Positions 26,161 to 55,500 are shown, counted from the stretch's first letter. The stretch is 64,000 bases of DNA from Planctomycetota bacterium (GCA_046290465.1 JBKAGP010000001.1:5408001-5472000); one strand, 5' to 3'. Notes: generated from the sequence alone by a model not told the origin. A program made the numbers and translations.

Positions 26161-26775
26161 TCAGGCCGCGCGGCTGCGGCCGAACAGGCGCGGCAGGAAG
26201 CGGCCGGTGCGCCGGTAGTACGGTGCGTACCGGTCGTGTTCCTGCAGCAGGCGGGCCTCCTCGTCGCGGGCGCTGCGCCGGTAGTACCACCACAGCATGA
26301 CCAGGTTGGCGACCAGCCAGACGGAGCCGGTCGCCAGCGCGAGACCGAGCAGCACCAGCTGGTTGGCGGTGTAGATCGGGTGCCGGATGCGCGCGTACGG
26401 TCCGGCCGTGACGATCGCGTGCGGCACGTAGCTGTCGTAGCACGGACTGTAGTGGCGGCCGAGTGCGCGGCGCGACAGGGCGAACATCAGGTAGCCGGCC
26501 GCGGCGACCGCCATGCCCGCGTAGATCGCCACGGGCGAGCGGTGCACGACCAGCCAGACGGCGTGGGGCGACAGCAGCGCGCCGAGGCCACAGACCAGCG
26601 TCGACGTCCGGATCCACGCGTAGACGGCCGCGAAGCCGCGCGGCGAGGGCATCGCCTCGCGGCTGCCGTCGGCGTAGTCGCGCGCCGCGTGGTCTCGCCG
26701 GTAGCTGCGCGCGGACAGCGCGCACAGCAGCAGCAGGAACGCCGCGGCGATCCACTCGTGCACGGAGGCGCTCAC
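26161..26775 (-). CDS. Isoprenylcysteine carboxyl methyltransferase (ICMT/PEMT)-family membrane methyltransferase
   Basis: LGRHYS, IVTAGPYARIRHPIYT, EEARL and Y..Y...TGRFLP motifs; GTG start overlaps the upstream TGA. Confidence 0.88.
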   Translation of the reverse strand: MSASVHEWIAAAFLLLLCALSARSYRRDHAARDYADGSREAMPSPRGFAAVYAWIRTSTLVCGLGALLSPHAVWLVVHRSPVAIYAGMAVAAAGYLMFALSRRALGRHYSPCYDSYVPHAIVTAGPYARIRHPIYTANQLVLLGLALATGSVWLVANLVMLWWYYRRSARDEEARLLQEHDRYAPYYRRTGRFLPRLFGRSRAA

Positions 26776-27296
26776 GCGATCGCCGCCTCGGCGTCCTCGA
26801 TCATGAAGATCGGCACCGTCGCGTGGATCTGCATCGAGCCCACCCGGGTGTCGACGACGGCGCGGCGGGCGCCGTTCGGCAGCCGCTTGACGCTGCGCAG
26901 CCACAGCTGCTGCACGAGGTCCTGCTCGTCCGCGATCAACGTCGGGATCTTCACGTCGATCTTGGTCGGCCACATCTTGAACTGCTCGGGGCCGTGCGGG
27001 TCGTAGTCGAGGTCGAACTCGCGGCACAGCGCCAGGTAGAGCATCTTCTGCGTGTGCGCGAGCGCGGTCAGGAAGATCAGGTGGCTCGGGCTGGCGAGCA
27101 TCGTGCTGTGGTAGGTGCGGTCGAAGTGCGCCTCGACGTAGCCGGGGCCGACGCGGTATTCGCGCACCTTCATCACTTCTTCCACCGGGCGGTCCGGCAT
27201 CACGTTGAAGCTGCAGCGGCAGTCGTGCAGCTCCTGGATCACCTCGAGGTCGAGGGCGGTCTCACAGTTGGGCATCGGGTCGTGCTCCTGGGTCAT
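26772..27296 (-). CDS. Hypothetical protein, possibly hot-dog fold (thioesterase/dehydratase-like)
   Basis: 174 aa. Beta strands, then a central helix (SHLIFLTALAHTQKMLYLAL), then more beta strands, loosely like FcoT/AfsA hot-dog proteins. Translationally coupled to the ICMT gene. Confidence 0.55.
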   Translation of the reverse strand: MTQEHDPMPNCETALDLEVIQELHDCRCSFNVMPDRPVEEVMKVREYRVGPGYVEAHFDRTYHSTMLASPSHLIFLTALAHTQKMLYLALCREFDLDYDPHGPEQFKMWPTKIDVKIPTLIADEQDLVQQLWLRSVKRLPNGARRAVVDTRVGSMQIHATVPIFMIEDAEAAIA

Positions 27297-27380
27297 GGTT
27301 CTGGCCCCAGGAACGACGGGTGGCGCCGAGGTCGGCCAACCTTGCCGCAAATCGGTCGCGGCGCCGCGCTCGGTCCGCGC

Positions 27381-28994
<1,614 letters not shown>

Positions 28995-29001
28995 CGGCCG
29001 C

Positions 29002-29541
29002 TCAGTTGGTGCGAACGTGGAAGCGGTCGTGACCGGGACTCTCCGACTCGAGCTGCTCCACCTGGATCTCGACCTCGAAGCGGCGTGCCAGGCCCTTCAG
29101 CAGGCCGAGCACCATCGGCGAGAGGCCTTCGCGCTCCGATCGGTAGTGCAGGATGCTCGAGCCGTCGTCGAGCGGTTCGCGCTCGAAGCTCGGCGGGATC
29201 AGCTTCGGCATGGTGCCGCCGATGCGCGCGTGCATCGAGTCGAGGTTCTCGAGGAAGTCCTCGAGCGTGTTGCCCATCATCGCGAGCAGGTCGCCGTAGC
29301 CCTCCTCGATCGTGTAGGCCGTCCAGTACTCGCCGAACGCCTCGAGCACCGCTGCCGGCTCCATCTCGAGTTCCTGCGAGGCGGCCCCGACGAGTGCGTA
29401 GGTGATCGCGTCGTCGTACGCGTCCATGGCCACGAAGTTCGGCTCGCTGATCTCGGCGCGTTCGCAGATGCGCGTCCAGGTCGGCTCTCCGAACTTCTCC
29501 TTGATCAGCCCTTCGACGGCACGATTCACGAGTCCATACAT
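29002..29541 (-). CDS. H-NOX heme nitric-oxide-binding protein
   Basis: MYGLVN start, Y.D..T, FGEYW, proximal His in LDSMHA, PPSF and the YRSER (YxSxR) heme motif. Confidence 0.96.
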   Translation of the reverse strand: MYGLVNRAVEGLIKEKFGEPTWTRICERAEISEPNFVAMDAYDDAITYALVGAASQELEMEPAAVLEAFGEYWTAYTIEEGYGDLLAMMGNTLEDFLENLDSMHARIGGTMPKLIPPSFEREPLDDGSSILHYRSEREGLSPMVLGLLKGLARRFEVEIQVEQLESESPGHDRFHVRTN

Positions 29542-29681
29542 GGTGATCTCGCTATCGGGTTTTCCGTACCGTCGGGTCAAACCGACGATGCGGCGGAGCA
29601 TGGGGGAGTTCCCTAGGCCGGTGTTCGAACAGGCCTAGCCGTGGGCGGTTCCATGCCGCGCAGATCTCGCCGTGGCGGGCC

Positions 29682-30641
29682 TCAGCGCGGCGTCGATTCG
29701 ATCCACATGCGCTGGAGCTGGCGCACGTTGCCCGGCGTGTCGCGGTAGGCGGTGCGGTTGTGCGCGAGCCTGCGGTTGTTGACCCACAGGATCTCGCTGC
29801 GTTCGAGCTGGAACCGCATCACGTTGTCCTCGCTCTCGAGCAGGCGGTCGAGTTCGTCGAGTGCCTCGAGTTGCCGCGGGGCGAGCGGCTGCTCGGCGCG
29901 ACGCTGGCCGGTCTCGATCCAGTAGCGCATGTAGCGGAACAGCAGGCCACCCGGACGGTCGCACAGCTGGAACACCGGGAACCGGTTGCGCAGCAGGTTG
30001 GCGAGGTTCTTCTCGCGGCCGGGCGTGACGACGTCGCGGATCAGCGGACGCTCGAGCAGCGCCGCCAGCTCGGGGGCGCGGTCGCGCAGCTGGTGGTAGG
30101 CGCGCACCGCGTTGCTGACGAGGCTCTCGCCGCCGTTGTGGCTCGGCTGTTCGCACAGCAGGCCGACGAAGTCCGGCACCACGTCGACCGAGCTGCTGTC
30201 GGTATGGAAGCTGGTCTCGGCGTTGGTCATCGAGACCGGGATCGCCTGCTGCTCGTGCGAGCCGCCGCGGTCGACGACCGGGTAGAGCCGGCCGTACTGC
30301 AGCATCGGTTGGCCGAGCGCGCACCCGTAGGCGGTGTAGAAGCAGCGCAGCTGCTCCTCGTCGAGGCCGAGCTGCTCGATGCCTTCGAGCACGACCAGGC
30401 CGCAGCCCGACTCGAGCTCGGTGCGCACCTCGTCGGCGAAGCGGCGCAGCTCGGGCCACTGCTCGGGCTGCCAGGAGAAGTCCGCCGCCGCCGTCCCGGG
30501 AGCCCCCGAGACGAACACCAGGATTTCGTTCGACACCCCGGCCGGCAGGCAGCGTCGCCAGCGAGCGCTACCCTGCAGCTGCGGGGCTGACCAGAGCCAC
30601 TCTGGCTCGAGGGAAGGGATCGGGACGACGGCGGCGGTCAT
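29682..30641 (-). CDS. TauD/TfdA-family Fe(II)/2-oxoglutarate dioxygenase
   Basis: FHTD (HxD), GLLC...GGES and NN...AHNRTAY...R facial-triad and 2OG motifs. Confidence 0.92.
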   Translation of the reverse strand: MTAAVVPIPSLEPEWLWSAPQLQGSARWRRCLPAGVSNEILVFVSGAPGTAAADFSWQPEQWPELRRFADEVRTELESGCGLVVLEGIEQLGLDEEQLRCFYTAYGCALGQPMLQYGRLYPVVDRGGSHEQQAIPVSMTNAETSFHTDSSSVDVVPDFVGLLCEQPSHNGGESLVSNAVRAYHQLRDRAPELAALLERPLIRDVVTPGREKNLANLLRNRFPVFQLCDRPGGLLFRYMRYWIETGQRRAEQPLAPRQLEALDELDRLLESEDNVMRFQLERSEILWVNNRRLAHNRTAYRDTPGNVRQLQRMWIESTPR

Positions 30642-30654
30642 GTGCGAGCTCCGG

Positions 30655-31410
30655 TCACTTCTGGATCTGGAAGGCAAGGTGCAGCGGCAGATCGCGGAGC
30701 GGGCCGAACCACTCGGGGTCCAGCGCCAGGTGCTCCTCGGTCGCGCGCAGTTCGCTCAGCTTGGGCATGCGTTCGAAGCCGGCCGCTGCGAGGCCGGTCA
30801 TGTAGTCCTCGAGCGTCTTGTGCACGCTGCGGACCGGAACGCTCTTGCCGTCGCGGCGCCAGATCTTGCCTTCGAACTGGCGGTCGCGGCCGGAGAAGTA
30901 ACCCTTGCCTTCGGGCTCGAAATAGAACGGGGCGACCTTCTCCCCCAGGAACGCGAGCGACGGGTGCGGCACCGCGAACACGAAGCGCCCACCCGGGCGC
31001 AGCACGCGGTGCACCTCGCGCATCACGTGGCGGGTGCGGTTCAGGTCGATGTAGTTGAACAGGAACACGGCGACGCACAGGTCGCGGCTCTCCGACGCGA
31101 TCTCCGAGAGGTCGCTGGCGTCGCCGGCCGAGTAGGTGATGCCGAGGCCTTCGCGCTGCTCGCGCTGCTGCGCACCGCGGATCATCTCCTCGGAGACGTC
31201 GATGCCGTGGATGCGGCCGGCGCCTCGCTCCTTGAGCTTGCGCGCGAAGTAGCCTTCGCCGCAGCCGAGGTCGAGCACGTCGAGGCCCTTCACCGGCTGG
31301 CACCACTCGAGCAGGAACGGCCGCGCGGTGAAGTCCGACAGCAGGATCGGCTCGGTGCGCTGCCAGTCGTCGCTGGCCTGGTCGTAGAGCTGTTGGGTCG
31401 AGACGCTCAC
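30655..31410 (-). CDS. Class I SAM-dependent methyltransferase
   Basis: VLDLGCGEG, GIDVSEEMI and RVLRPGGRF motifs; GTG start overlaps the upstream stop. Confidence 0.93.
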   Translation of the reverse strand: MSVSTQQLYDQASDDWQRTEPILLSDFTARPFLLEWCQPVKGLDVLDLGCGEGYFARKLKERGAGRIHGIDVSEEMIRGAQQREQREGLGITYSAGDASDLSEIASESRDLCVAVFLFNYIDLNRTRHVMREVHRVLRPGGRFVFAVPHPSLAFLGEKVAPFYFEPEGKGYFSGRDRQFEGKIWRRDGKSVPVRSVHKTLEDYMTGLAAAGFERMPKLSELRATEEHLALDPEWFGPLRDLPLHLAFQIQK

Positions 31411-32240
31411 GCCCGCACCTCCGTCTCGTCGCCGAGGATCGTGCGGTAGAGGTCGTCCCAGAACTCGCAGCGCAGCTGCAGCGCGGTCAGCATGCCGCTG
31501 CGCAGCTCGGCGAATCCGCCCGGCGCCTGCGCCAGGTCCCTGGCGATCTCGAGCAGGTCCTGCTGGTGCTGGTCGTCGACCAGGCAGTGCAGCTCGAAGA
31601 ACACGAACTCGTGGCGGCGCAGCTTGCCCATCGACAGGATGCCTTCGATCAGCTGCTCGTAGACCGGACGCACGATGTGCTCGGTGCCGAGGCCGAGCGC
31701 GCCGACGGCCTGCGCCGGCGTCGCGCGACGCAGGAAGTTCTCGAAGCGCTCGCGCCAGCGGCGCGCGGCGGGGCGCGGCTGCTGCAGTTCGCGGTCGGCG
31801 ATGCCCATCGCGTCACAGAAGCGGCGGAACAGCTTCGGGTGCGGCACGCCCTGCACGGTGCGCGGGTCGATGCCGACCTTGCGCAGCTCGTCGCACTCGT
31901 CCTCGCCGAGATGGCCCTGCTCCTCTTCGAGGTTGTGGGCCAGCAGATGGCGGTGCTCCTCCGACTCGAGGCGCGAGATGACCGCCTTCAGGTAGCGCGG
32001 GAACCAGGCCGCGTAGCCGCTGTATTCGACCGCGTAGGTGCGCAGCGCCGCGACCGGGTCGCGGAACTCGCAGCGCGAGAACCGGGTCAGGAACGGGTGG
32101 TGCACGGCGGGGTGCGCGAGCGACTCCTGGACGAGGGCTTCGACTCCTTCGGGGCGCTGCAGGTCCGTTGCGGGTGCGGTGCTGATCGTGGTCATGGCTG
32201 GCGGCTTCTGGTTTGTGGCGCCATGGGACTGGGCTTCCAT
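31407..32240 (-). CDS. Heme-oxygenase-like diiron oxidase (HDO; CADD/TenA/PqqC-like iron-containing redox enzyme)
   Basis: HPF, NLEEEQG...PH..LF, GTE and FF.LHCLVDDQH provide the E/H/E/H-x3-D-x2-H diiron ligand set. Start is 32240 or 32195. Confidence 0.9.
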   Translation of the reverse strand: MEAQSHGATNQKPPAMTTISTAPATDLQRPEGVEALVQESLAHPAVHHPFLTRFSRCEFRDPVAALRTYAVEYSGYAAWFPRYLKAVISRLESEEHRHLLAHNLEEEQGHLGEDECDELRKVGIDPRTVQGVPHPKLFRRFCDAMGIADRELQQPRPAARRWRERFENFLRRATPAQAVGALGLGTEHIVRPVYEQLIEGILSMGKLRRHEFVFFELHCLVDDQHQQDLLEIARDLAQAPGGFAELRSGMLTALQLRCEFWDDLYRTILGDETEVRA

Positions 32241-32403
32241 GGCTCGGGGCTTCCACGCGCCGTCTCGGGGGGGAATCCGGCGACATCAGCAACTATGCGA
32301 AGACCTTAAGAAGCCGCCCTTGCCACCGCTGGTTCGCGGGTGCGAAGTGCTTGTCGCGAAAGGGGTTTGGAGCAATCTCCGAAAATCGGTCGATAGTCCC
32401 GGG

Positions 32404-34788
32404 ATGAGCCGTCCGCCCCTGCTCCCGGTTGCCCTGTTCGCGATGGTCGCGGTCGCCGGGGCCTGCCTGCTCGCTGGCTGGATCGCGCCGTTCGCCGTCG
32501 CGCCCGATGGGGGCGGCGTCGCCCCTCCGAGGCTGGCGTCGGGGCCCCGGCCCGAGGCCGCGGCCGAGCCGCTGCAGCGCGCGCTCGCCCGGCCGGCGCC
32601 GACGCTGGCCGGTCGCTGCGTCGACTGGGACACGGGCGCGCCGATCCCGGGCAGTGAGGTCGCCGTCGTCGGGGGCGCGTCGGCGTATTCCGACCTGGCC
32701 GGCAACTGGCGCATTGAGTCCGCGGACGATGCGTGGGCGGTGCGCGTCCGCGCGGCTGCGTCCGGCTACCTGCCGGTCGCGCGCACCTTCGACCTGCCGC
32801 ACCGTGCCGCGATCGAGATCCCGCTGCGCCGCGCGGGTCGGGTCGAGGGCCTGCTGCTGCACGCCGATGGCGCCGCACCGGTCGGCGCGGTCGTGCGCCT
32901 CGCCTACCCGTCCGCTGCCGAGCGGAACGACGGCTGGGACGAACCGCACGCTCGGTCCGCGTCGGTCGCCGCCGACGGCACGTTCGGGTTCTTGCGCGGC
33001 GTGCCGCGCGGACCGGTGACGGTGTCGGTCGACGGCGCGGCGCCGCTCATCGGCACGGCCCGACACGTGGTCGAGGCGCACACCTTCCTCGACCTGCGCT
33101 GCCGCGCGGTCGCGATCGGCGAGGTGATCCGCGGCCTGGTGCTCGGTGCCGACGGCGCGCCGGTGCCGGACGCGCTGGTGCACGCCCGCGTCGACGGCAT
33201 GCCGATCGCCGCGGGGCGCACGGACCGCAGCGGTCGGTTCTGCCTGCTCGGCGAACGGCCGCACGACCGTCCGTGCTCCCTGACGGCGACGTGCACGCGC
33301 GGGGCACACCTGCAGGAGGGCCATCTCGACGGGGTCGCATGGGGCAGCGCCGGCGTCACGCTGCAGCTCGAGCCGGGCGGTGCCGTCGCGCTGCACGTGC
33401 ACGACGCCGCCACCGGCCAGCCAATCGAACGCTACGCGGTCCAGTGCGTGCGCGTGTCGGGCGTGCGTTCGGCCCGCGGCGGCGAGCCGCGCGCCGACGG
33501 GCGGCATCCCGGTGGCTGGTCGGCGCTCAGGGGGCTCGCGCCGGGGGACCATCGGCTGGTCGTCTGGCCCGACGATGCGCGATGGTTGCCCAACCTGCCG
33601 ACCGCGTTCGCCGTCGAGGCCGGGTCGCCGCGCGAGCTGCGCCTGGCGCTGCAGCCGGCGCGGCCGTGCCGCGTGCTGGTCGTCGACGGCGCCGACGTGC
33701 CGGTCGTCGGCGCGCGCGTGCAGCTGCTGGTGCCGGGCGAGCACGAGCTGGTGCGCGACCACCGTGACCTTTTGCGCAGCGGCGCCAGCCGCAGCCGCCT
33801 GACGGTGCGGGTCGCGACTGCGGCGACCGGCGCCGACGGCGTGGCGACGTTGCGCTGGTTCGACGATCCCGAGCCGCGCACGCTGCGCGTCGACGGCGGC
33901 GGCGTCGTGCCGTTCGAGATGACGGGCGTGCGGCTGACGCGCGATGGCGTGGTCGTGCGTGCCGCGCCTGCCGGCCTCGTCGACCTCCGGCTTCGCGGCG
34001 TGTCCGGTTGGAACGTCGTCGCGACCGGCGCCGACGGCTCGGTGTCGCCGCCGCCGTGGAGCGGCCCCTGCACGATCGGCGACGATGGCCGCGCGACGCT
34101 GCGCCTGCCGGCCGGGCGCTGGGACCTGAGCGTCACCGCGACGCACCGAGGCCGCCGCCGAACGGTCTCGCTCCGGCAAGGGCTGCGGGTCTGCGCCGGC
34201 GAGCGCGTCGCGGTCGAACGCGACCTGCGCGCCGCGATCGTGCCGGCGACCTGGACCACGCGGGTCCTGTTCGACGGGCAGCCGCTGCGCATCGTCGAAC
34301 TGGAGCGCGGCGAACGCGGCCCGGACGGCGATGTGCGCTCGGTGCACGTCGAACGCGTCGCGCTCGACGAGCATGGCCGCTTCGTCGGTGCGGCGCTGCC
34401 ACCCGGGTGCTACGCGCTGCACGCGCCGTGGACGTGCGCCGGCCAGGACGTGCGCGTGCCGTTGACGGGGTGGGTCGAGCTCGGCCCGGCCGCGCGCCGC
34501 GACGACGACGCGATCCAGGTGGCGACCGGCCGCATCGACCTCGAGCTGGCCAGCCCCGATGGCGGCGTGCCGAGCGGCGGCCTGCTGGTGCTGCGCGGCG
34601 ACCACGGCTGCACGCTGGTCGCGACGCCGGACGACCGCGGCCGGGTGCGCGCGGCGCGCGTGCCCATCGGTCGCTACCGGCTCACCTGGCGCGGCCAGGC
34701 TGCCGTCGTCGACGTCGGAGTGGTCGAGGTCGTCGAGCAGGGTGGCCGCCGGTCGGCGGCCGCGGATCGCCGCATCGTGCCGCTGTGA
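32404..34788 (+). CDS. Membrane-anchored carboxypeptidase-regulatory-like repeat protein (similar architecture to 9066-11579)
   Basis: N-terminal TM; GRCVD, 'VAWG', 'GRHPGG' and repeated G.V...DG.PV..A motifs shared with the 9066 protein. Confidence 0.7.
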   Translation: MSRPPLLPVALFAMVAVAGACLLAGWIAPFAVAPDGGGVAPPRLASGPRPEAAAEPLQRALARPAPTLAGRCVDWDTGAPIPGSEVAVVGGASAYSDLAGNWRIESADDAWAVRVRAAASGYLPVARTFDLPHRAAIEIPLRRAGRVEGLLLHADGAAPVGAVVRLAYPSAAERNDGWDEPHARSASVAADGTFGFLRGVPRGPVTVSVDGAAPLIGTARHVVEAHTFLDLRCRAVAIGEVIRGLVLGADGAPVPDALVHARVDGMPIAAGRTDRSGRFCLLGERPHDRPCSLTATCTRGAHLQEGHLDGVAWGSAGVTLQLEPGGAVALHVHDAATGQPIERYAVQCVRVSGVRSARGGEPRADGRHPGGWSALRGLAPGDHRLVVWPDDARWLPNLPTAFAVEAGSPRELRLALQPARPCRVLVVDGADVPVVGARVQLLVPGEHELVRDHRDLLRSGASRSRLTVRVATAATGADGVATLRWFDDPEPRTLRVDGGGVVPFEMTGVRLTRDGVVVRAAPAGLVDLRLRGVSGWNVVATGADGSVSPPPWSGPCTIGDDGRATLRLPAGRWDLSVTATHRGRRRTVSLRQGLRVCAGERVAVERDLRAAIVPATWTTRVLFDGQPLRIVELERGERGPDGDVRSVHVERVALDEHGRFVGAALPPGCYALHAPWTCAGQDVRVPLTGWVELGPAARRDDDAIQVATGRIDLELASPDGGVPSGGLLVLRGDHGCTLVATPDDRGRVRAARVPIGRYRLTWRGQAAVVDVGVVEVVEQGGRRSAAADRRIVPL

Positions 34789-35047: not shown

Positions 35048-35383
35048 TTGCACGCGCTTCGAGCCTTGACCCTGGCCTTCGTGGCCATCCTCACCTTCGC
35101 AACCAGCGCTTCGGCGCAGTCGTCGTCGCAGCCGCGACTCGACGTGCCCAAGCTGATGAACGCCGGCAAGTCGGTTTCGATCGGCTACACCAACCCCGCG
35201 ATGGCGGGGCAGACGGTGATCATCGAGGTCGACAACGGCATGCGTCGCGAGACGCAGACCGCCGTCATCGAGATCCACCTCGACGCCAAGGGACGCGGCT
35301 CCGCGACCTGGACCGTGCCGCAGTGGTTCGGCGCGAACTTCAACGCGCCCGAGGCGGCCGAGCAGCACGCGACCATCGTCTGA
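35048..35383 (+). CDS. Small secreted hypothetical protein (Ig-like beta strands)
   Basis: TTG start, signal peptide ending ASA-Q, GGGAG upstream. Confidence 0.65.
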   Translation: MHALRALTLAFVAILTFATSASAQSSSQPRLDVPKLMNAGKSVSIGYTNPAMAGQTVIIEVDNGMRRETQTAVIEIHLDAKGRGSATWTVPQWFGANFNAPEAAEQHATIV

Positions 35384-35398: not shown

Positions 35399-36217
35399 CT
35401 ACCGCTGCGCGAACGCGCGGATGCGCTGCAGCTGCGCCTGGTTCTGCGCCATCAGTTCTTGCGGCTCGCCGGCCGCGGCGATCGCCTTGAGCGCGCGCAC
35501 GCCGTAGACGATCTGCTCGGTCAGCTGGTCGACCGACGAGAGCCGCGCCGACAGGTCGCCGTCGGATGCGAGCGCCTGGCTGCCGAGCAGCTGGTGCTGC
35601 ATCGCGAACGACGAGATCGCAAACGGCTGGTCGTCGTCGACCGCCGCGCGGATCATCGCCAGCCCGCGCTCGGCGCCGGCGGCCATCGCCGGCTCGGCGG
35701 CGACGTCGCGCAGGATGCCGATCGACTCGATCACGTCGAAGTAGACACGGCCCTGCGCCGCGCTGCGCGCGTCGAGGTCCTGCTGCGCATCGGTCAGGAT
35801 CGCGATCGCCTCCTGGAACGGCAGGCTGGTGGTGGTGTGGCGCAGCACCAGGGCGCTGACCGCGATCGCCGTGATCGCGCCGGCGGCCAGCAGGAACTTC
35901 GGCGCCACCAGCAGCGCGGCGGCGGCCGCGAGCAGGCCGCGCCAGCTCGACAGGTCGTGCACCTTCGCCTGCGGCGCTCCGTGCCCGATGCCGGTCGCGT
36001 CGGCGACGGCGGTGACGTCGGCGACGATCGCGTCGACCATCGTGTCGGCCAGCGGCTCGGCCTCACCCTGCTCGTCCAGCTCGGCGAGCAGCTGCTCGGC
36101 GTCGGTCAGCTCGTCGGCCGACGGGGCCTGCGCCTCGTCGGAGGCCTGCTGCAGACGCTGCCAGTACTCGTCGTCGTCGATCAGGTTGCGGTCCACGTTG
36201 CTCGGATCTCGGGTCAT
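35399..36217 (-). CDS. Putative membrane anti-sigma factor / hypothetical protein
   Basis: ATGA overlap with the upstream ECF sigma; acidic N-terminus and central TM segment. Confidence 0.55.
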   Translation of the reverse strand: MTRDPSNVDRNLIDDDEYWQRLQQASDEAQAPSADELTDAEQLLAELDEQGEAEPLADTMVDAIVADVTAVADATGIGHGAPQAKVHDLSSWRGLLAAAAALLVAPKFLLAAGAITAIAVSALVLRHTTTSLPFQEAIAILTDAQQDLDARSAAQGRVYFDVIESIGILRDVAAEPAMAAGAERGLAMIRAAVDDDQPFAISSFAMQHQLLGSQALASDGDLSARLSSVDQLTEQIVYGVRALKAIAAAGEPQELMAQNQAQLQRIRAFAQR

Positions 36218-36846
36218 GCGATCTGGCTCCGTTCGCCGGTGGGTTCGAAGCCGCGTTCGCTCAGTACGCGGCGCAGCGTCTTGCGGGCGGTGTTGCGGGA
36301 CACGTAGATGGAGTTCTTCGACGTGCCGAGCTCGGCAGCCAGTTCGCCGGCGTCGGCGACGCCGCCGCAGCGCAGGTCGGCCTCGATCACGCCGCGCTGC
36401 ACGCGCGGCAGGGCGTCGATGGACTCGCGCAGCGCCAGCAGGAACGGCGACGTCGAAGCTCCGCTCGCGCCGTCGCTCGGCTGGCCGGAGGCCGGCGCCG
36501 CCCGTCGCTCGATGTCCTGGTCCAGGACCTCGGCGCTGCGGCGCTGCCGCTGGCGCAGGATCTCGTTGCCGGCGTTGCGCGCGATCGTGAAGAACCAGGC
36601 GCGCAGCGTGCCCTTGGCGGGGTCGAAGGTGTCGGCCGAACGCCACGCGCTGTAGGAGGCGGTGGAGACGGCTTCGTCGATCTCGATCTGGGTCAGCATG
36701 GTTCCGAACGTCTTCTGCAGCGCCCGCCGCACGGTCCCCCCGTGCACTTCGAGCAGGCAGCGCAGACCGGTTCCGTTCCGCTCACGGAGCTGGCGGGCGA
36801 TCACCTGGTCGTCGACGGGGGTCGTGCTGGGGTTGCTCGAGGGCAT
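36214..36846 (-). CDS. ECF sigma-70 family RNA polymerase sigma factor
   Basis: Region 2 (FDPAKGTLRAWFFTIARN) and region 4 (IDALP...ELAAELG.S...IYV.R..AR..LR). Confidence 0.88.
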   Translation of the reverse strand: MPSSNPSTTPVDDQVIARQLRERNGTGLRCLLEVHGGTVRRALQKTFGTMLTQIEIDEAVSTASYSAWRSADTFDPAKGTLRAWFFTIARNAGNEILRQRQRRSAEVLDQDIERRAAPASGQPSDGASGASTSPFLLALRESIDALPRVQRGVIEADLRCGGVADAGELAAELGTSKNSIYVSRNTARKTLRRVLSERGFEPTGERSQIA

Positions 36847-37005
36847 CGTCCAAGGCCGCAGGGCCTCTTCCATCCGGGACTATGCAGGCACCTTAAACGC
36901 GCGCCCGAAAAACCTTCGGCGTCGCGGGCGCGCCGCCCTGGCCGACGCCGGCCGGCGTGCCCGCATTTGCGTTGCCGGCGCGCGGTCGCCACACTGCTCG
37001 TCCCG

Positions 37006-40825: not shown

Positions 40826-43471
40826 TCACTCACGCGGCGCCCACACCAGGCGGAAGCCGGTATGCAGGCCGGCGGCTCCGGCATCGAGCGCACGTACGGC
40901 GTCGATGGCGAACGCGTCGGGGTGGCTGTCCTGCCACGATCCGCCAGCCAGCGGGCGAAGGGTCTGGCCTTCGTCGAGGAAGTCGTTGCACCACTCGGCT
41001 GCGCTGCCGGCCATGTCGAGTGCGCCGTACAGCGAGACGTCGAACGGGTACGAACGGATCGGCTCGAGGGTGGCGGTCGGGCGCGCGAATCGACCCTTGC
41101 ACCAGTGCGGCGAGAAGTAGTTTCCGAACGGATAGCGGCGGAACGACGGCGTGTTGACGGCGCCGGCGGCACGGCGCCACTCCTTGCGGGTGGGCAGGCG
41201 TGCCTCGTACGAAACGTCGAGGATGCGCAGTTCGTGGTTGCGGTTCCACCAGCGTGCGTAGCGCGCCGCGTCGTGCCAAGACACACCGACCACGGGATGG
41301 TCGTGCTCGGTCGTCGCCGGCAGTTCGTGGCTGCCGTGCTCGCGCTCCGTCCAGGGCGTGCGGCCGAGCGGCCGCGGTGGTTGCGCCAGCCGCTCTTCCG
41401 GGTCGCGCGAAGAGCTGTTGAGGAACGTCAGATACTCCCCGTTGGTCACTTCGCGTTCCTGCATGAAGACGCCCGGCCAGCGCCCGCGTGCGTCGGAGAC
41501 CCGGACGAATCCGGCAGGGGTCGTGCCGAGCGGCAGCATGCGGCCGCCGTATTCTCGGTGCAGGGCGCGTTCGGGTTCGCGGTACGGGACGACGACCGGC
41601 AGGGTCACCGTCTCGTGCTCGGGCATGCGGAGCTCGATGATGTACTCGCCGCGCTCGATCGGCAGCCGCGCGATCGGAGCCTTGCCGAGCAGGCTGGTTT
41701 CGTCGGGCCAAGGGATCCGGATCATGCGTCGGTCGCCGGCGAGGGCCTGCACTGGCTGCAGGGGTTCGTCGCGGCCGAGGTCGGCGGCTTCGACCGAACG
41801 GAACATGTGTACCTCGGCGCCAGGTGGGTCGCTGACGATGGAGATCTCGACGGCGCCCCGCATGCGGCGACGCTCGTCACCGTCGTGGTCGTGCAGCTCC
41901 GCCTGCTGCCGACAGAACGCGAACAGTGCGCGCCAGTCGAGCGAGGTGCGGTGATCCGTCCAGCGTTCGAACCAGAACCGTGCCCAGACCTCGTCGCCTT
42001 CGCGAGAGTCGGGATCGAGCTCCTCGGCGAGGTGCACCTTCTGGGCCAGCACCGCGAACAACGCATCCGTCGAACCCCAGTGCACCTCCCGGTTGATGCT
42101 GTGCCGCTGCAGGAACGCGAGCTCGTCCTCGCTCAGGAAGCGTTCGAGCCTGGCCTTCTCCAGCTGGTAGGCGCGGTCGGCGGCGATGCTGAACGCGGCG
42201 CGGCGTTCGCGGTAGGCGTTGATCTCGTCGCGCGCCTCCTGCAGCAGGTTCGCGGCCTGCTGGCGGCGATGCTGCTGGTCGCGGCGTTGCTCGATCCACT
42301 GCAGCACGACGACGAGCACGAGTGCTGCGGCCATCGCGGCGGCGGTCAGGACCGTGCCGCGGTTGCGGCGACACCATCGCGAAAGGCGACGTCCGCGGGA
42401 TGGCGGCGATGCGGCGACCGGACGCAGCTCGAGCACGGCGAGCAGGTCGCCGGCGAACGCCTGCATCGTCGCGTAGCGGTCGTCCGGCGAGGCCTCCATC
42501 GCCTTCTCCACGACCAGCGCAAGGTCGCGCGCGATGCCCGGATTGCGCTGGCGCACCGCCGGTGGTTCGCGGTGGCTCGCCTCCGCGGCGATCGACTCGA
42601 GCGTCGTGCCTTCGTATGGCAGGCAGCCGGTGAGCGCTTCGTAGAGGACCACGCCGAGCGAATAGATGTCGCTGCGGTGGTCGACTGCATCGCGTTCGCC
42701 GCGACGCTGTTCGGGCGATGCGTACTGCGGGCTCCCCGCGAACTCGATCGTGCGCGGCGGACCGTGCTCGAGCAGGTCGCGGGCGAGGCCGAAGTCGAGC
42801 AGCACCGCACGATGTTGCGGATCGATACGGATGTTCGACGGCTTGACGTCGCGATGCACGATGCCTTCGCCGTGGGCGATCTGGAGTGCCGTGGCGATCT
42901 CGTGGCACCACCGCACCGCGCGATCGACGCGCACCTGGTCGGTCGCCAGCACCTCGTCGAGGCTGCGGCCGGGCACCAGCTCCATCACCAGGAACCGTAC
43001 TCCGTGTTGCTCGCCGCTGCTGAACAGCGTGACGATGTGCGGATGCCGGAGCCGCGCCACGGCGCGTGCTTCGAGCTCGAACCGCTGGCGCGCGGTCGGC
43101 GAGCCGAGCAGGTCGCCGCGCACGACCTTGAGTGCCACGAGGCGTTGCAGCGACGGTTGTTCGGCGAGGAACACGGTGCCCATGCCGCCTTCGCCTAGCT
43201 GCTTCAGCAGGCGGAACTCCCCCAGCATCTCGCAGGGGAGGCCGTCGTCGGCCGGCAGCAGTCGTCCGTCGCCTTGCGTTCCGTCGTTTGCCCGCGCATC
43301 TCCGCCGAGCTGCTCGCAGATGCGTTCCAGCGCGGCGCGAAGCGCCGGGCCGGCGCCGTGGCGTCCGCAGAACGCCGCTGGCGGTTCGACGTCGCCGGCC
43401 AACGCACGGTCGAGCCATTGGTCGAACAGCGCGTCTTGGTCGGATGGGGGCGGCGAGGAGGACGAGGGCAT
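40826..43471 (-). CDS. Ser/Thr protein kinase with TM, PEGA-like and C-terminal FGE-sulfatase (SUMF1) domain
   Basis: LGEGGMGTV, VALK, HRDVKPSN, DFGLA, YASPEQ, SDIYSLG; later EVTN.EY..F, HPVVGVSW.DA, RLPT..EW and DMAGSAAEW. Confidence 0.93.
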   Translation of the reverse strand: MPSSSSPPPSDQDALFDQWLDRALAGDVEPPAAFCGRHGAGPALRAALERICEQLGGDARANDGTQGDGRLLPADDGLPCEMLGEFRLLKQLGEGGMGTVFLAEQPSLQRLVALKVVRGDLLGSPTARQRFELEARAVARLRHPHIVTLFSSGEQHGVRFLVMELVPGRSLDEVLATDQVRVDRAVRWCHEIATALQIAHGEGIVHRDVKPSNIRIDPQHRAVLLDFGLARDLLEHGPPRTIEFAGSPQYASPEQRRGERDAVDHRSDIYSLGVVLYEALTGCLPYEGTTLESIAAEASHREPPAVRQRNPGIARDLALVVEKAMEASPDDRYATMQAFAGDLLAVLELRPVAASPPSRGRRLSRWCRRNRGTVLTAAAMAAALVLVVVLQWIEQRRDQQHRRQQAANLLQEARDEINAYRERRAAFSIAADRAYQLEKARLERFLSEDELAFLQRHSINREVHWGSTDALFAVLAQKVHLAEELDPDSREGDEVWARFWFERWTDHRTSLDWRALFAFCRQQAELHDHDGDERRRMRGAVEISIVSDPPGAEVHMFRSVEAADLGRDEPLQPVQALAGDRRMIRIPWPDETSLLGKAPIARLPIERGEYIIELRMPEHETVTLPVVVPYREPERALHREYGGRMLPLGTTPAGFVRVSDARGRWPGVFMQEREVTNGEYLTFLNSSSRDPEERLAQPPRPLGRTPWTEREHGSHELPATTEHDHPVVGVSWHDAARYARWWNRNHELRILDVSYEARLPTRKEWRRAAGAVNTPSFRRYPFGNYFSPHWCKGRFARPTATLEPIRSYPFDVSLYGALDMAGSAAEWCNDFLDEGQTLRPLAGGSWQDSHPDAFAIDAVRALDAGAAGLHTGFRLVWAPRE

Positions 43472-43564
43472 CGCGAACCAGGAATGTAGCGCAGTTCGCG
43501 GATTTCCTGTCTGCGTCCGCAGCGGCCCCCGATCCAGCACGCAGACCTACCGAGGATTCCGACC

Positions 43565-52510: not shown

Positions 52511-55500
52511 ATGGTCCGCATGCTGCTCACGACGCTGCTGGTCACCGCCCTGGCGGGGACCAGTTCTGGCCAGAACACCTCCGATCCGCAGGGGCCGGAA
52601 TTGGTCGCCAGCCGTTTCACCCCGGTCGTCGACGGCGACCTGGCGGATTGGAAGGCCTTTACTGGGAACGGCTTCGGGCGTGACCAGATCTTCGAGGGCG
52701 CCGACAAGTGGAAGAGCGGCAAGGACCTCTCGGCCAATTTATTGGTCAGCTGGGACAACAACCGGCTCTACCTCGCCGGCACGGTCCGGGACGACCAGTT
52801 CGCCGCAGACGAACTCGCCGCGCAGCGTCAGGTCGACTGCATCGAGGTCCACGTCGGCGGCGACACCCGCGACGCGGCGACCCGCACCGAGCGCAGCGTG
52901 CTGCGGCTGTTCCCGATGCAGGCGCACCGGCCGTGGGCGTGGGGCGGCGGCCAGCGCGCGGCCGTCGGTGAGGAGCCGGTCCAGCAGATCACCCAGCTGG
53001 CCGGCCTGACGGTCGTCGGCAAGCAGCTCGACGCGACCTCGTACCAGTTCGAGGCGGCGATCCCGTTCCATCACTTCCCGAACCTGCGCCCCGGCACCAC
53101 CAGCTTCGGGTTCGATCTGGCCCTGCGCGACCACGACCTCGCCGGAGGTGGCGGCGGCACGTCGATGTCGTGGAGCCGCACCGACCCGTTCTTCGGGCCG
53201 CGCAACGCGGTGCTGCGGCTCGGCGAGCCGGGCCTGCTGGCGCCGACTGTCGAGCCGCGGCCGCTGCTGTCGGGCGAACTGCTGGTCGATCTGCCGTACC
53301 TGCTGGTGCCGCTGCTCGCGCTGGTCGCGCTGGTGCTGCTGTTGCGCGGCTGGGCGCGCATCCGCGGCCGGGTGCGCTGGCTGCGCAGTGCGCTGGTGGT
53401 GGTCGGGGTCACGACCTTCCTGGTCGGGCTGTGGCTGCCGTCGCTGATGACGTCGTGGCGCGCCGACGAGCAGCGCCAGCAGCTGGCGGCACGGCTCGGC
53501 AACCTGCAGGCCATGCTGCCGTTGCTCGAGGGCGGCTCGCTGAAGAGCTACCGCGGCGCCAGCCGCGACCGCGCCGTCGTCGACCTCGTCAGCGGCCGCG
53601 GCATCACCCGCCAGCGCTACACGACCTACCGGTCGCTGGTCGACATCGCGCCCGAGCAGTTCGGGCCGCCGGTGCGTTCGTTCGACGGCCTGCCGGTGCG
53701 CTGCTACTGGCTGCCGCTGCCCGAGGAGCGCACCGAGAGCTTCCAGTTCGACCGCGAACTGCAGGGCAACAAGCTGTTCCTGGTGGTGGCGCGCCCGTTC
53801 GCGCCGTCGATCGCGCTGACCACCGATCCGCTGCCGCCGGCGGTGCTCGACATCGAGCTCGACTACGGCGAGGAGAAGGTGCAGCAGCAGATCTCGCTCG
53901 ACCTGCCGTTCGACGACGCGACGTCGCTCGGCCGCGACTTCTGGGAGGCCGGCATCGTGCAGCTCGAGCTGTCGGGCCAGCTGCGGTCGGCGACGCTCGG
54001 CTGCGCCGGCAACCCCGACGTGCGCCTGGTCGGCATGTCGCTCGAAGGTGCCGAGGTCGGCTCGGTCGAGCCGCTGTCGCTCGGCAAGCCGTCGCGCGAC
54101 GGCGTGCTGACCGATCTGCGCGGCGCCTACCCACAGGACGCCGGCCTCGAGCTGGCGCCGGGCGCGGTCGCCAAGGTCACGATCCCGGAGGACGTCGAGT
54201 CGCCGGAGAAGATGTGGCTGTTCTACCGCGCGGTCTACCCCGGCCTGCCGGCGTCCAACCCGGGCTCGCGCGTCGCCGAGGTCGTGCTGCACTTCCGCGA
54301 CGGCCGCCAGAAGCAGACCCACGTGCTCGAGCACCAGGTCTCGATGTTCTACGAGCTGGCGGTGCACAACACGCGCGATGACCCGCCCGAGGAGTCGGCT
54401 GCGTCGATCGCGCTGACGTGGGTCGACGACACCCAGGAGCGGCACGTCAACGTCGGCTACCCGCTGCTGGAGCTGCCGACCGACACGTCGGTCGAGGCGA
54501 TCGAGTTCAAGAACCTCGCCGACTACCGCATGCGGTTCCGTTCGGTGGTGTTCGTCAACCAGCGCGCGGTCGCGCCGCAGGATCCGCCCGACTCGCCGCT
54601 GGTCAAGAAGGGCAACCAGCGGTTCCTGAGCGAGGCGGCGCTCGCCGAACTCGACGACCTGGTGGTCTCGATCTACCGCACCGGCGAACTCAGTGAGTCG
54701 ACGCTCGGCCTCGAGCAGCGCGTCGACGTGCAGACGCTGCCGCGCTCGGTCGGCTCGGCCGAGTCGACCGAGACCGCGTCGCTGCTGCCGAGCGGCGGCC
54801 GCCGTCTGTCGCTGTTCGCGCCGCTGCGCGGCGACGGTTGGGACGGCGCGGTGCTGGCGGTCTCGGCGACCGACGACCAGTGGGCGGCGTCCGAGCAGTC
54901 GGGCAACCGCATGGGGCTGCTGCTGTGCCTGTTGAGCACGCCGTTCCTGCTGGTGCTGCTGAGCGAACTGCTGGCGGTCGTGACCAACCTGCGCTTCCGC
55001 CTGATGACGGTGCTCTCGGTCGCGTCGCTGGCACCGCTCGGCCTGCTGTCGCTGGTGCTCGTGCAGGTGCTCGAGAGCGGCCACGAGACCGAACTCGAAG
55101 GCAGCGTGCGCGCCACCGTGCGCAGCGCAATGGCGCAGCTCGAGGACCAGAAGGTGCGGGTGCAGCAATCGGCGCAGCAGTGGCTGCGCGACCTGGCGAC
55201 GCTGGCCAACGAGAAGCTCGAGGGGCTGCCGCAGCAGCCGCAGGGCCAGGAGCAGGGCATCTCGATCGCGTCGTTCTCCGACGAGCTGCAGGCGCTGCTG
55301 TCCGGCCAGCTGCCGCCCGAGTGGGGCGGCGGCTTCCTGCGGCTCGAGTGGCAGCAGCCCGGCGAAGGTGCGGCCGCGCCGCTGGTGCTGGTCTCGGGCG
55401 ACGACCGCATGGTGCAGGCGGAGGCGCCGGCGCGCCTCGATCCGGGCCTGTTCATGCAGTGGGGGCGGTTGATGCTCGGCGTGCGCGCCGAGCAGGTCGT

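Follow-up and report, generated by a model that had tools for sequence, protein, structure and literature searches.

In a 64,000-nucleotide stretch of the genome of a Planctomycetota bacterium (GCA_046290465.1, JBKAGP010000001.1:5408001-5472000; hereafter the window, with positions counted from its first letter), three enzyme genes and two sensor genes form a five-gene cassette that recurs in related genomes. The enzymes, here called the trio, are a haem-oxygenase-like di-metal oxidase/oxygenase (HDO), an S-adenosylmethionine methyltransferase (MT) and a TauD-type Fe(II)/2-oxoglutarate (2OG) oxygenase; the sensor consists of a stand-alone H-NOX protein and a hybrid histidine kinase with an HNOBA domain (Table 1). 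This coupling of sensor and enzymes is real and apparently undescribed, and it is probably functional. The five genes are read here, with a probability of about 0.45, as a signal-gated metabolic module whose output, either regulated or co-deployed, is the trio; the enzymes may consume or remove nitric oxide (NO).

The five genes remain together in relatives of the source organism (related loci are cited below by L number). Strong HDO orthologues (E <= 1e-99) occur in 6 of 40 related genomes, and the order HDO-MT-TauD-H-NOX-kinase is kept, at 54-80% identity, in all five loci that reach far enough, the sixth contig stopping inside the TauD gene. The H-NOX/kinase pair is accordingly kept in five of five such loci, with kinase orthologues of 54-60% identity following H-NOX in L014-L018. 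An earlier note on this DNA, made from the sequence alone, had treated seven co-oriented genes as one module by including a hot-dog-like and an ICMT-like gene downstream of the kinase. All seven open reading frames (ORFs) at 26161-32240 do lie on the minus strand, and their coordinates and junctions match that description exactly, but the last two genes were found in none of the six orthologous HDO loci. The 174-aa hot-dog-like protein matches no Pfam family and was not found in any of the 40 related genomes; by language-model features it is nearest to thioesterase, AvrD, AfsA and FcoT clusters (scores 0.90-0.95, which serve as leads only), which we take to be hot-dog-fold families. Homologues are present in other Planctomycetota, adjoining an ICMT-like gene far from the trio: on the complete chromosome of G435 the trio is located at 5.63 Mb, whereas the two genes are found at 2.28 Mb, and they also adjoin in L121 and L122, away from the trio. 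Because they are located elsewhere in other genomes, the two genes constitute a separate conserved pair outside the module. A 171-aa gene that follows the kinase in L030 has no similarity to the hot-dog-like protein. The locus is a five-gene cassette plus an unrelated two-gene pair, and the seven-gene module is retained only in its five syntenic members.

The linkage of trio and sensor extends over a whole HDO clade. An HDO alignment scan of one genome per prokaryote species gave at least 295 relatives, of which the best 80 loci were kept. MT and/or TauD genes adjoin HDO in 45 of these 80, and tblastn located H-NOX in 11 of the 45. A search with the Pfam H-NOX model, which covered the genomes of 55 of the 80 loci, added L025, L026 and L029, in which a diverged H-NOX-like gene (59 and 48 bits in the two scanned) and a kinase lie about 5 kb upstream. 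In the HDO tree, the H-NOX-linked loci belong to a single 20-row clade (support 99/99), L063 being the one exception. This planctomycete clade is counted together with L032, which stands outside the tree because of a stop in its match, and without L020 and L028, whose contigs are too short to be informative. Of the resulting 19 loci, 14 have an H-NOX gene no more than 6 kb from the trio, in three arrangements: co-oriented and downstream (the window, L021, L022, L023, L027, L030), divergent and adjacent to the HDO operon (L031, L032, L034, L070 and L035, which is Saltatorellus ferox Poly30, a named strain with a complete genome, the trio occupying 8.0-10.5 kb of this locus), and divergent at about 5 kb with the diverged subtype (L025, L026, L029). 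Among the five clade loci without a nearby H-NOX, L024 has none in its genome, L033 and L037 have one elsewhere in the genome, L038 has one 17 kb away on the same contig, and L047 has an HDO match in two pieces with no MT or TauD gene alongside.

These 14 of 19 loci compare with a phylum background of 42 H-NOX-positive genomes among 401 evenly drawn Planctomycetota, and HDO, MT and TauD were found in none of 20 other H-NOX loci fetched, which bears out the proposed link between the enzyme trio and the H-NOX/kinase pair as far stronger than expected by chance. The earlier note had also held that a trio occurring mostly without H-NOX would speak against its interpretation, in which the enzymes make a ligand for the sensor. 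This is the case in part, since 31 of the 45 loci with MT and/or TauD (among the 80 fetched) have no H-NOX nearby and whole clades are without it in the genomes searched. The linked H-NOX proteins belong to at least four lineages in a FastTree phylogeny, namely an orthogroup of 11 members (nine linked to the trio; L103 and L104 unlinked), L032, L063, and the very distant L025/L029 proteins; L063 is from a member of the Saprospiraceae (Bacteroidota). Because the adjacency has re-formed with different H-NOX lineages and in different gene orders, selection appears to act on the pairing itself. No description of an HDO/MT/TauD cluster with H-NOX was found in the literature searched, most subscription journals lying outside that search here and below, and the claim that the layout is new therefore stands within this scope.

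Three labels of metagenome-assembled genomes (MAGs) in this set look doubtful, those of L070 (Paracoccaceae), L024 (Pseudomonadales) and L029 (Brocadiaceae). The L070 HDO groups with that of Saltatorellus ferox (100/100), as does its H-NOX (97), and the HDOs of L024 and L029 nest inside the planctomycete clade.

The sensor half of the cassette has the residues of a haem-based receptor. The H-NOX protein aligns over its full length with the Nostoc Alr2278 H-NOX (E 9.3e-52) and matches soluble guanylate cyclase (sGC) beta1 with E 1e-31. Its H104 aligns with the Nostoc H-NOX His, the Y-x-S-x-R motif is present as HYRSER, and all 15 H-NOX sequences share H104, P116 and R137. H-NOX proteins of the Nostoc and sGC types bind NO and CO and are not known to bind O2. 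By their conserved catalytic and haem-binding residues, the enzymes and the sensor appear to be intact. A second H-NOX locus in the genome (G000:C1:4998869-5001065; L012, L120) encodes a distant H-NOX (114.7 bits) followed by a histidine kinase, with an Hpt match about 1.5 kb downstream of H-NOX, and has no enzyme trio.

Canonical sources of NO were sought throughout the genome. The nitric oxide synthase (NOS) family PF02898 has no match in the 6.59 Mb, under conditions in which the Bacillus subtilis and Deinococcus radiodurans controls scored; the absence of NOS that had been stated for the window thus holds genome-wide. The window ORFs scanned likewise contain no domain of a nonribosomal peptide synthetase (NRPS) or polyketide synthase, again as had been stated. 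NirK gave nothing above the cut-off genome-wide and NirS only one partial match of 29.5 bits, so that no canonical internal NO source was found. This result would suit a system in which the trio itself makes the ligand from a methylated amine or amino acid, whether NO, an N-nitroso compound or diazeniumdiolate that releases NO, or another haem ligand, and in which the co-encoded H-NOX/kinase senses it in an autocrine, NOS-independent manner. A bacterium with both NOS and H-NOX is known, and the NO source is unknown for most H-NOX bacteria (PMC4436077), which is also consistent with such self-made ligand. The linked H-NOX is of the ordinary Nostoc/sGC type, and two members of its orthogroup are unlinked to the trio; both points argue against a dedicated ligand, and together with the evidence given below they make this explanation rather unlikely.

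The chemistry of the HDO bears directly on this question. Its AlphaFold model (pLDDT 91.8) is all-helical, and the top Foldseek matches are CtCADD, BesC, UndA, HrmI and FlcD, each with a probability of 1.00; TM values to CADD and BesC are about 0.68-0.82 at only about 19-21% identity. By this predicted seven-helix haem-oxygenase-like fold, the protein fits the HDO superfamily, whose members are marked by O2-activating di-iron (or Fe/Mn) chemistry on small substrates. A profile of 16 HDO sequences retrieves CADD (E 8.6e-14) and BesC (E 5.9e-12) from PDB sequences and no SznF at E <= 10, SznF is not among the Foldseek matches listed for the model, and the NCBIfam CADD model gives 55.9 bits against a cut-off of 200. 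Residues E91, E92, H119, E172, H203, D207, D208 and H210 are invariant in 16 homologues, and H119/H203/H210 together with E91/E92, E172 and D207/D208 probably provide a di-metal site with three His and at least three carboxylate ligands. The H-x3-D-x2-H spacing presumably fits the CADD pattern. The protein has PF14518/PF03070 only, without a cupin domain, which in SznF is C-terminal and carries out the rearrangement of N-methyl-arginine supplied by the methyltransferase SznE, and no cupin gene is present in the window cluster. An analogy with SznE/SznF, which the earlier note had drawn, is thereby reduced to the fold.

HDO enzymes include N-oxygenases, the N-nitrosourea intermediate of SznF decays to NO, and HamA (an HDO) with HamB (a cupin protein) has been proposed to act in the biosynthesis of a diazeniumdiolate signal (PMC11705231); HamA is among the structural matches of the locus HDO, at rank 32. 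These precedents favour NO release by the trio. According to a 2026 review, the reactions of CADD and BesC, the nearest relatives, are C-C cleavage or para-aminobenzoate (pABA) formation and not N-oxygenation, the HDO enzymes number more than 10,000 but a reaction has been established for only about a dozen, and the same ligand sets are described for widely differing reactions (PMC13108848). The reaction of the locus HDO can therefore not be read from its ligands. The lack of a sequence link to SznF and of a cupin in the window cluster is evidence against a ligand-making trio. While the enzymes may produce NO, their sequences give no specific sign of N-N or N-O chemistry.

The other two enzymes leave the substrate broad. 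The MT matches generic class I models only (Pfam, NCBIfam, PDB), its nearest PDB chains being 3bkw and ToxA 8rdl, and it is always paired with a TauD gene in related loci. In the TauD protein, H146-x-D148...H294 is invariant in 28 homologues, as are R296, R307 and R311, which are candidates for the 2OG-binding Arg. Its model (pLDDT 90) matches TtnM (7n7v), FrbJ, BBOX1 and TmpA in fold, and AsnO is also among the closest structures and chains. Since the nearest structure, TtnM, is a polyketide hydroxylase, the substrate class is not readable from these matches; a phosphonate pathway, suspected from the proximity of FrbJ and TmpA, was dropped for the same reason.

Outside the H-NOX-linked clade, the trio occurs with other signalling devices or with none. 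In a well-supported sister clade (L036, L041, L042, L043, L045, L052, L057), a cyclic nucleotide monophosphate (cNMP)-binding domain is fused to the HDO N terminus. The fusions keep the phosphate-binding cassette G-E-x-A-F-I-D-x-R-P-R-[SAVT]-A and occur also as proteins P0101, P0103, P0104, P0106, P0109, P0114, P0116 and P0119; judging by this cassette, they would be cNMP-gated HDOs, a seemingly undescribed type. Ten more genomes, from one family of the phylum sample, have an equally close HDO in open frames of 353-417 aa, and none of the ten is among the 42 H-NOX-positive genomes of the 401 Planctomycetota. A Bacteroidota set has the order GNAT-HDO-cupin-MT-TauD-FNR-type ferredoxin reductase, or parts of it, and in L063 the trio has an adenylate/guanylate cyclase as its neighbour. 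The trio is thus repeatedly attached to signalling devices (H-NOX, cNMP domain, cyclase), as would suit an enzyme set that is an output of signalling, and since trio-bearing genomes without H-NOX exist, H-NOX is no requirement for the enzymes. Many distant relatives, in cyanobacteria, Myxococcota and others, have a cupin gene after HDO; such pairs occur in L039-L099, Trichodesmium L091 and Cyanobium L093 among them. This recalls the HDO-plus-cupin make-up of SznF and is a point for enzymes that generate the ligand, although the nearest PDB chains of these cupins are gentisate dioxygenase and oxalate decarboxylase, not SznF. The remaining distribution argues the other way: most trio loci, and whole clades in the genomes searched, are without H-NOX, so that the product does not need an H-NOX receptor, and the fusion to a cNMP-binding domain suits a regulated enzyme better than a signal synthase.

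The same fusions raise the question of control at the protein level, in which H-NOX or the kinase receiver would bind HDO and switch its activity like the fused cNMP domain. The sensor domain at the HDO N terminus in the sister clade is a precedent of a kind, and H-NOX proteins act by binding partner enzymes. The obvious H-NOX partner is, however, the HNOBA kinase 7 nt downstream, and no fusion of H-NOX to HDO was seen, no HDO relative of at least 460 aa scoring E <= 1e-10, which is weak evidence. Direct binding to HDO is very improbable on this basis.

Regulatory signals tie the trio to a further group of genes. The promoter-like motif TTAAGGT-N5-GCATAGT has two sites in the 6.59-Mb genome, 4.6 kb apart, one before HDO and one before a gene for an extracytoplasmic function (ECF) sigma factor. 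The same motif type lies upstream of HDO in L014/L021, L015/L022, L016/L023, L017/L030, L025, L026, L029 and L031, and also before the ECF orthologues in L014, L025, L026 and L029, giving the double occurrence in four other genomes. Orthologues of the sigma factor (49-56% identity) occupy the same position in L014/L021, L025, L026 and L029. The sigma gene, a candidate anti-sigma gene whose product matches no Pfam family, a small gene and a CarboxypepD_reg gene form a block conserved beside the HDO operon, and the last of these is a conserved divergent neighbour of HDO in L021, L022, L025, L026, L028 and L029. ECF sigma genes are commonly auto-regulated. Because the motif is common to both promoters, the ECF sigma/anti-sigma pair probably switches the trio on, in what would be a two-promoter ECF regulon. 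In promoters of the sigma-70 family, the halves are rarely as close as in this motif; a transcription-factor site is therefore an alternative. In the genome as a whole TTAA is extremely rare: base composition would predict about 3300 sites in the 6.59 Mb, and there are 136. TTAAG has 96 sites and CTTAAG 12.

The spacer between TauD and H-NOX has no terminator-like hairpin. A scan for sigma-70-type promoters gave no site, and a terminator scan gave a single terminator-like hit, within the MT gene, with at least as many in shuffled sequences. The sequence CCGATAG lies at 29552-29558, 10 nt before the H-NOX ATG, and CCGAT[AG] precedes the H-NOX start in six of six co-oriented loci, a hint, and no more, that H-NOX has a promoter of its own. 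The idea that CCGATAG serves generally as a promoter element was rejected, its enrichment being modest (49 of 175 near starts, whereas the reverse complement gave 17 of 175 and other words containing a stop gave 12-25%). An imperfect palindrome in the spacer, CTAGGCC-TGTTCGAACA-CC-GGCCTAG at 29613-29638, is not kept in five related spacers. Among the sequencing runs listed as containing the stretch, none is of RNA. Five short contigs from one presumed-RNA run cover H-NOX, TauD, MT and HDO, and none spans the 140-nt spacer. In loci with the divergent arrangement, an inverted-repeat-like element ATTCC...GGGACA...GGAAT is present in the H-NOX/HDO intergenic regions (L034:1753-2057, L035:7709-7995, L070:3815-4107); it is a candidate operator, unlike the TTAAGG motif of the window clade.

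This arrangement of signals allows for mere co-regulation of neighbours, in which the trio, the H-NOX/kinase pair and the ECF/secreted-protein block would constitute a stress or habitat island, expressed in shared conditions (for example, on algal surfaces) and each with a task of its own, without a chemical link between sensor and enzymes. The promoter motif joins the trio to the ECF block and not to the kinase, the H-NOX-like gene of L025, L026 and L029 lies beyond the ECF block, about 5 kb from HDO, the trio and the H-NOX/kinase pair each occur alone elsewhere, and the metagenome runs that carry the locus stretch are labelled algae, aquaculture and marine. Against this stands the persistence of the adjacency through changes between divergent and co-oriented order, in at least four H-NOX lineages and in one Bacteroidota genome, which is hard to account for without selection on the pairing. 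An island of this kind is rather unlikely.

The reading of the trio as a signal-gated output is preferred because a cNMP sensor domain is attached to HDO in another clade, because the sensor is divergent from the operon in several loci, and because the trio is present in H-NOX-free genomes. A divergent layout of sensor and operon, as in L031-L035 and L070, is the usual arrangement of a regulator and its target. In terms of mechanism, the cassette may consist of two separable modules held together by selection in this planctomycete lineage. The first would be an O2-dependent HDO-MT-TauD pathway in which a small metabolite, presumably of the amine or amino-acid type, is most likely methylated, hydroxylated and remodelled by oxidation. 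In the second, made up of the sGC/Nostoc-type H-NOX and the HNOBA hybrid histidine kinase, H-NOX would bind a diatomic gas, most likely NO of external origin, and thereby change the output of the kinase and phosphorelay. The kinase signal would be tied to the timing of trio activity, presumably with the signal passing to the enzymes, and the ECF sigma/anti-sigma pair would probably activate the trio promoter. The trio would then not be the NO source of the cell.

Several observations weigh against this interpretation. The locus has neither an Hpt gene nor a DNA-binding response regulator, the nine Hpt matches of the genome all lying outside it, so that the route by which the kinase would reach the trio promoter is not apparent; the ECF-type motif points to the sigma factor, rather than the kinase, as the driver of the trio. 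H-NOX/kinase orthologues occur without the trio (L103, L104), and conversely H-NOX is absent from the seven cNMP-HDO clade genomes searched and from the L024 genome, although the trio is present. Many of the loci come from related MAGs and the counts are thus not independent. Finally, in the window clade the enzyme genes are followed on the same strand by the sensor genes, and no terminator-like hairpin separates them, which favours production and sensing of a ligand by the same operon. In producer-sensor loops such as agr and com, the sensor is co-transcribed with a synthase. The CCGAT[AG] element, as a hint of a promoter belonging to H-NOX itself, counts against that explanation in turn. Its most far-reaching version would make the trio a NOS-independent route to NO or an NO-releasing metabolite, the H-NOX/HNOBA kinase its dedicated receptor within an ECF-switched gas loop, and the sister-clade fusions cNMP-gated synthases; in this complete form it is distinctly improbable.

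Table 1. Genes, regulatory sites and related clusters (window positions, unless a locus is named)
Feature	Position	Strand	Remarks
HDO	31407..32195	-	262 aa; longest ORF to 32240; PF14518 E 1.2e-18, also PF03070
SAM methyltransferase (MT), class I	30655..31410	-	251 aa; 4-nt overlap with HDO; Methyltransf_25 E 5.9e-24, also Methyltransf_11/31
TauD/CAS-type Fe(II)/2OG oxygenase	29682..30641	-	319 aa; 13-nt gap from MT; PF02668 E 3.3e-33
TauD/H-NOX spacer	29542..29681	-	140 nt
Stand-alone H-NOX, sGC/Nostoc type	29002..29541	-	179 aa; PF07700 (HNOB) E 3.5e-47
Hybrid histidine kinase	27381..28994	-	537 aa; 7-nt gap after H-NOX; HNOBA-HisKA-HATPase_c-Response_reg (Pfam)
Hot-dog-like protein	26772..27296	-	174 aa; 84-nt gap after kinase; by language-model features
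PEMT/ICMT-like membrane methyltransferase	26161..26775	-	4-nt overlap with hot-dog-like gene; PEMT E 1.4e-11, ICMT E 1.5e-05
Promoter-like motif TTAAGGT-N5-GCATAGT	32292..32309	-	52 nt before longest-ORF HDO start
Second copy of the motif	36879..36896	-	directly upstream of ECF sigma gene
ECF-type sigma factor	36214..36873	-	219 aa; Sigma70_r2 E 1.2e-09
Candidate membrane anti-sigma factor	35399..36217	-	hydrophobic stretch; co-conserved with sigma; probable start 36217 (ATGA overlap)
Small secreted-looking protein	35048-35383		part of ECF block
CarboxypepD_reg-domain protein	32404..34788	+	PF13620 E 2.5e-24; signal-peptide-like N terminus; divergent from HDO operon; probable start
cNMP-HDO fusion, then MT and TauD	L036:7515-8735
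cNMP-HDO fusion, then MT and TauD	L042:4125-5351
cNMP-HDO fusion, then MT and TauD	L052:7479-8735
Bacteroidota cluster	L058:7191-12311
Bacteroidota cluster	L074:7243-12310
Bacteroidota cluster	L079:2116-7293
Bacteroidota cluster	L067

The source genome is a single contig of 6.59 Mb, 94% complete. Close homologues of its locus proteins, where named, bear the label Planctomycetota. G+C content is about 70% across the 64-kb window, and third-position GC is high (0.89-0.96) in those locus ORFs for which it was measured. The HDO start at 32195, which matches the orthologues and P0001, is likely the true one. None of the seven locus proteins reaches an NCBIfam equivalog cut-off. Two other ORFs of the window have unusual domain compositions. 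One at 52511-58336 (plus strand) encodes 1941 aa with CBM9-like, HAMP, sigma-54 activator AAA+ and DeoR-type helix-turn-helix regions, an unusually large enhancer-binding protein; the other, at 40826-43540 (minus strand), encodes a Ser/Thr protein kinase fused to an FGE-sulfatase (formylglycine-generating-enzyme-like) domain.

Neither the physiological NO source nor the metabolic outputs are known for the majority of bacterial H-NOX systems (PMC4436077), and the locus joins this question to that of the orphan HDO enzymes. In either direction of the link, H-NOX signalling would gain a partner of a new type and the locus would provide a first signal-gated HDO, whether in NO-regulated metabolism, in NO use or removal, or in NO production. 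Each part belongs to a known kind; what appears to be undescribed in the literature searched is that they are repeatedly united, together with the cNMP-HDO fusion and the ECF motif at two promoters.

Known H-NOX partners are kinases, diguanylate cyclases/phosphodiesterases and chemotaxis receptors, and no report of H-NOX linked to HDO-type enzymes was found in the same literature. As in the H-NOX/kinase systems of Shewanella (HnoX-HnoK), Vibrio (HnoX-HqsK/HahK) and Silicibacter (H-NOX-HK), a stand-alone H-NOX gene is followed by a kinase gene; unlike in those systems, the kinase has an sGC-type HNOBA domain and a receiver and is joined to an HDO/MT/TauD operon. The closest solved structure is that of the Nostoc Alr2278 H-NOX, which shares the haem His and Y-x-S-x-R with the locus protein. 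Silicibacter sp. TrichCH4B, with NOS and H-NOX, is the sole characterised bacterial case of making and sensing NO according to PMC4436077. The parallel would be a bacterium, associated with a photosynthetic microbe, that could combine an NO maker with an NO sensor, but the window organism has no NOS and its candidate maker is the unrelated trio.

Among HDO systems, SznE/SznF of streptozotocin biosynthesis resembles the locus in that an MT and an HDO are encoded together and in having the HDO fold with a His/carboxylate di-metal site; it differs in that the locus HDO has no detectable sequence relation to SznF and no cupin domain, and in that the locus encodes an additional TauD oxygenase and no sugar or tailoring genes. 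The pABA synthases CtCADD and NePabS and the 4-chloro-allylglycine synthase BesC are the nearest HDO relatives by profile and structure, whereas the context of the locus HDO is an MT and a TauD gene, without folate or Bes genes. The Pvf and Mgo clusters are grouped with HamA/HamB as diffusible-signal pathways. HamA/HamB of fragin and valdiazen biosynthesis combine a small HDO with a cupin protein in such pathways (PMC11705231), a cupin being present here only beside distant relatives; the match of the locus HDO to HamA 9vwb is weak (rank 32, E 1.3e-04), and the locus has no NRPS and no AurF-like N-oxygenase. In the two-step oxidative cleavages by TmpA/TmpB and PhnY/PhnZ, a TauD-type hydroxylase and a di-iron oxygenase act on a small methylated amine, and TmpA and BBOX are among the closer relatives of the locus TauD protein; the second enzyme of those pairs (TmpB, PhnZ) is an HD-domain protein, whereas here it is an HDO.

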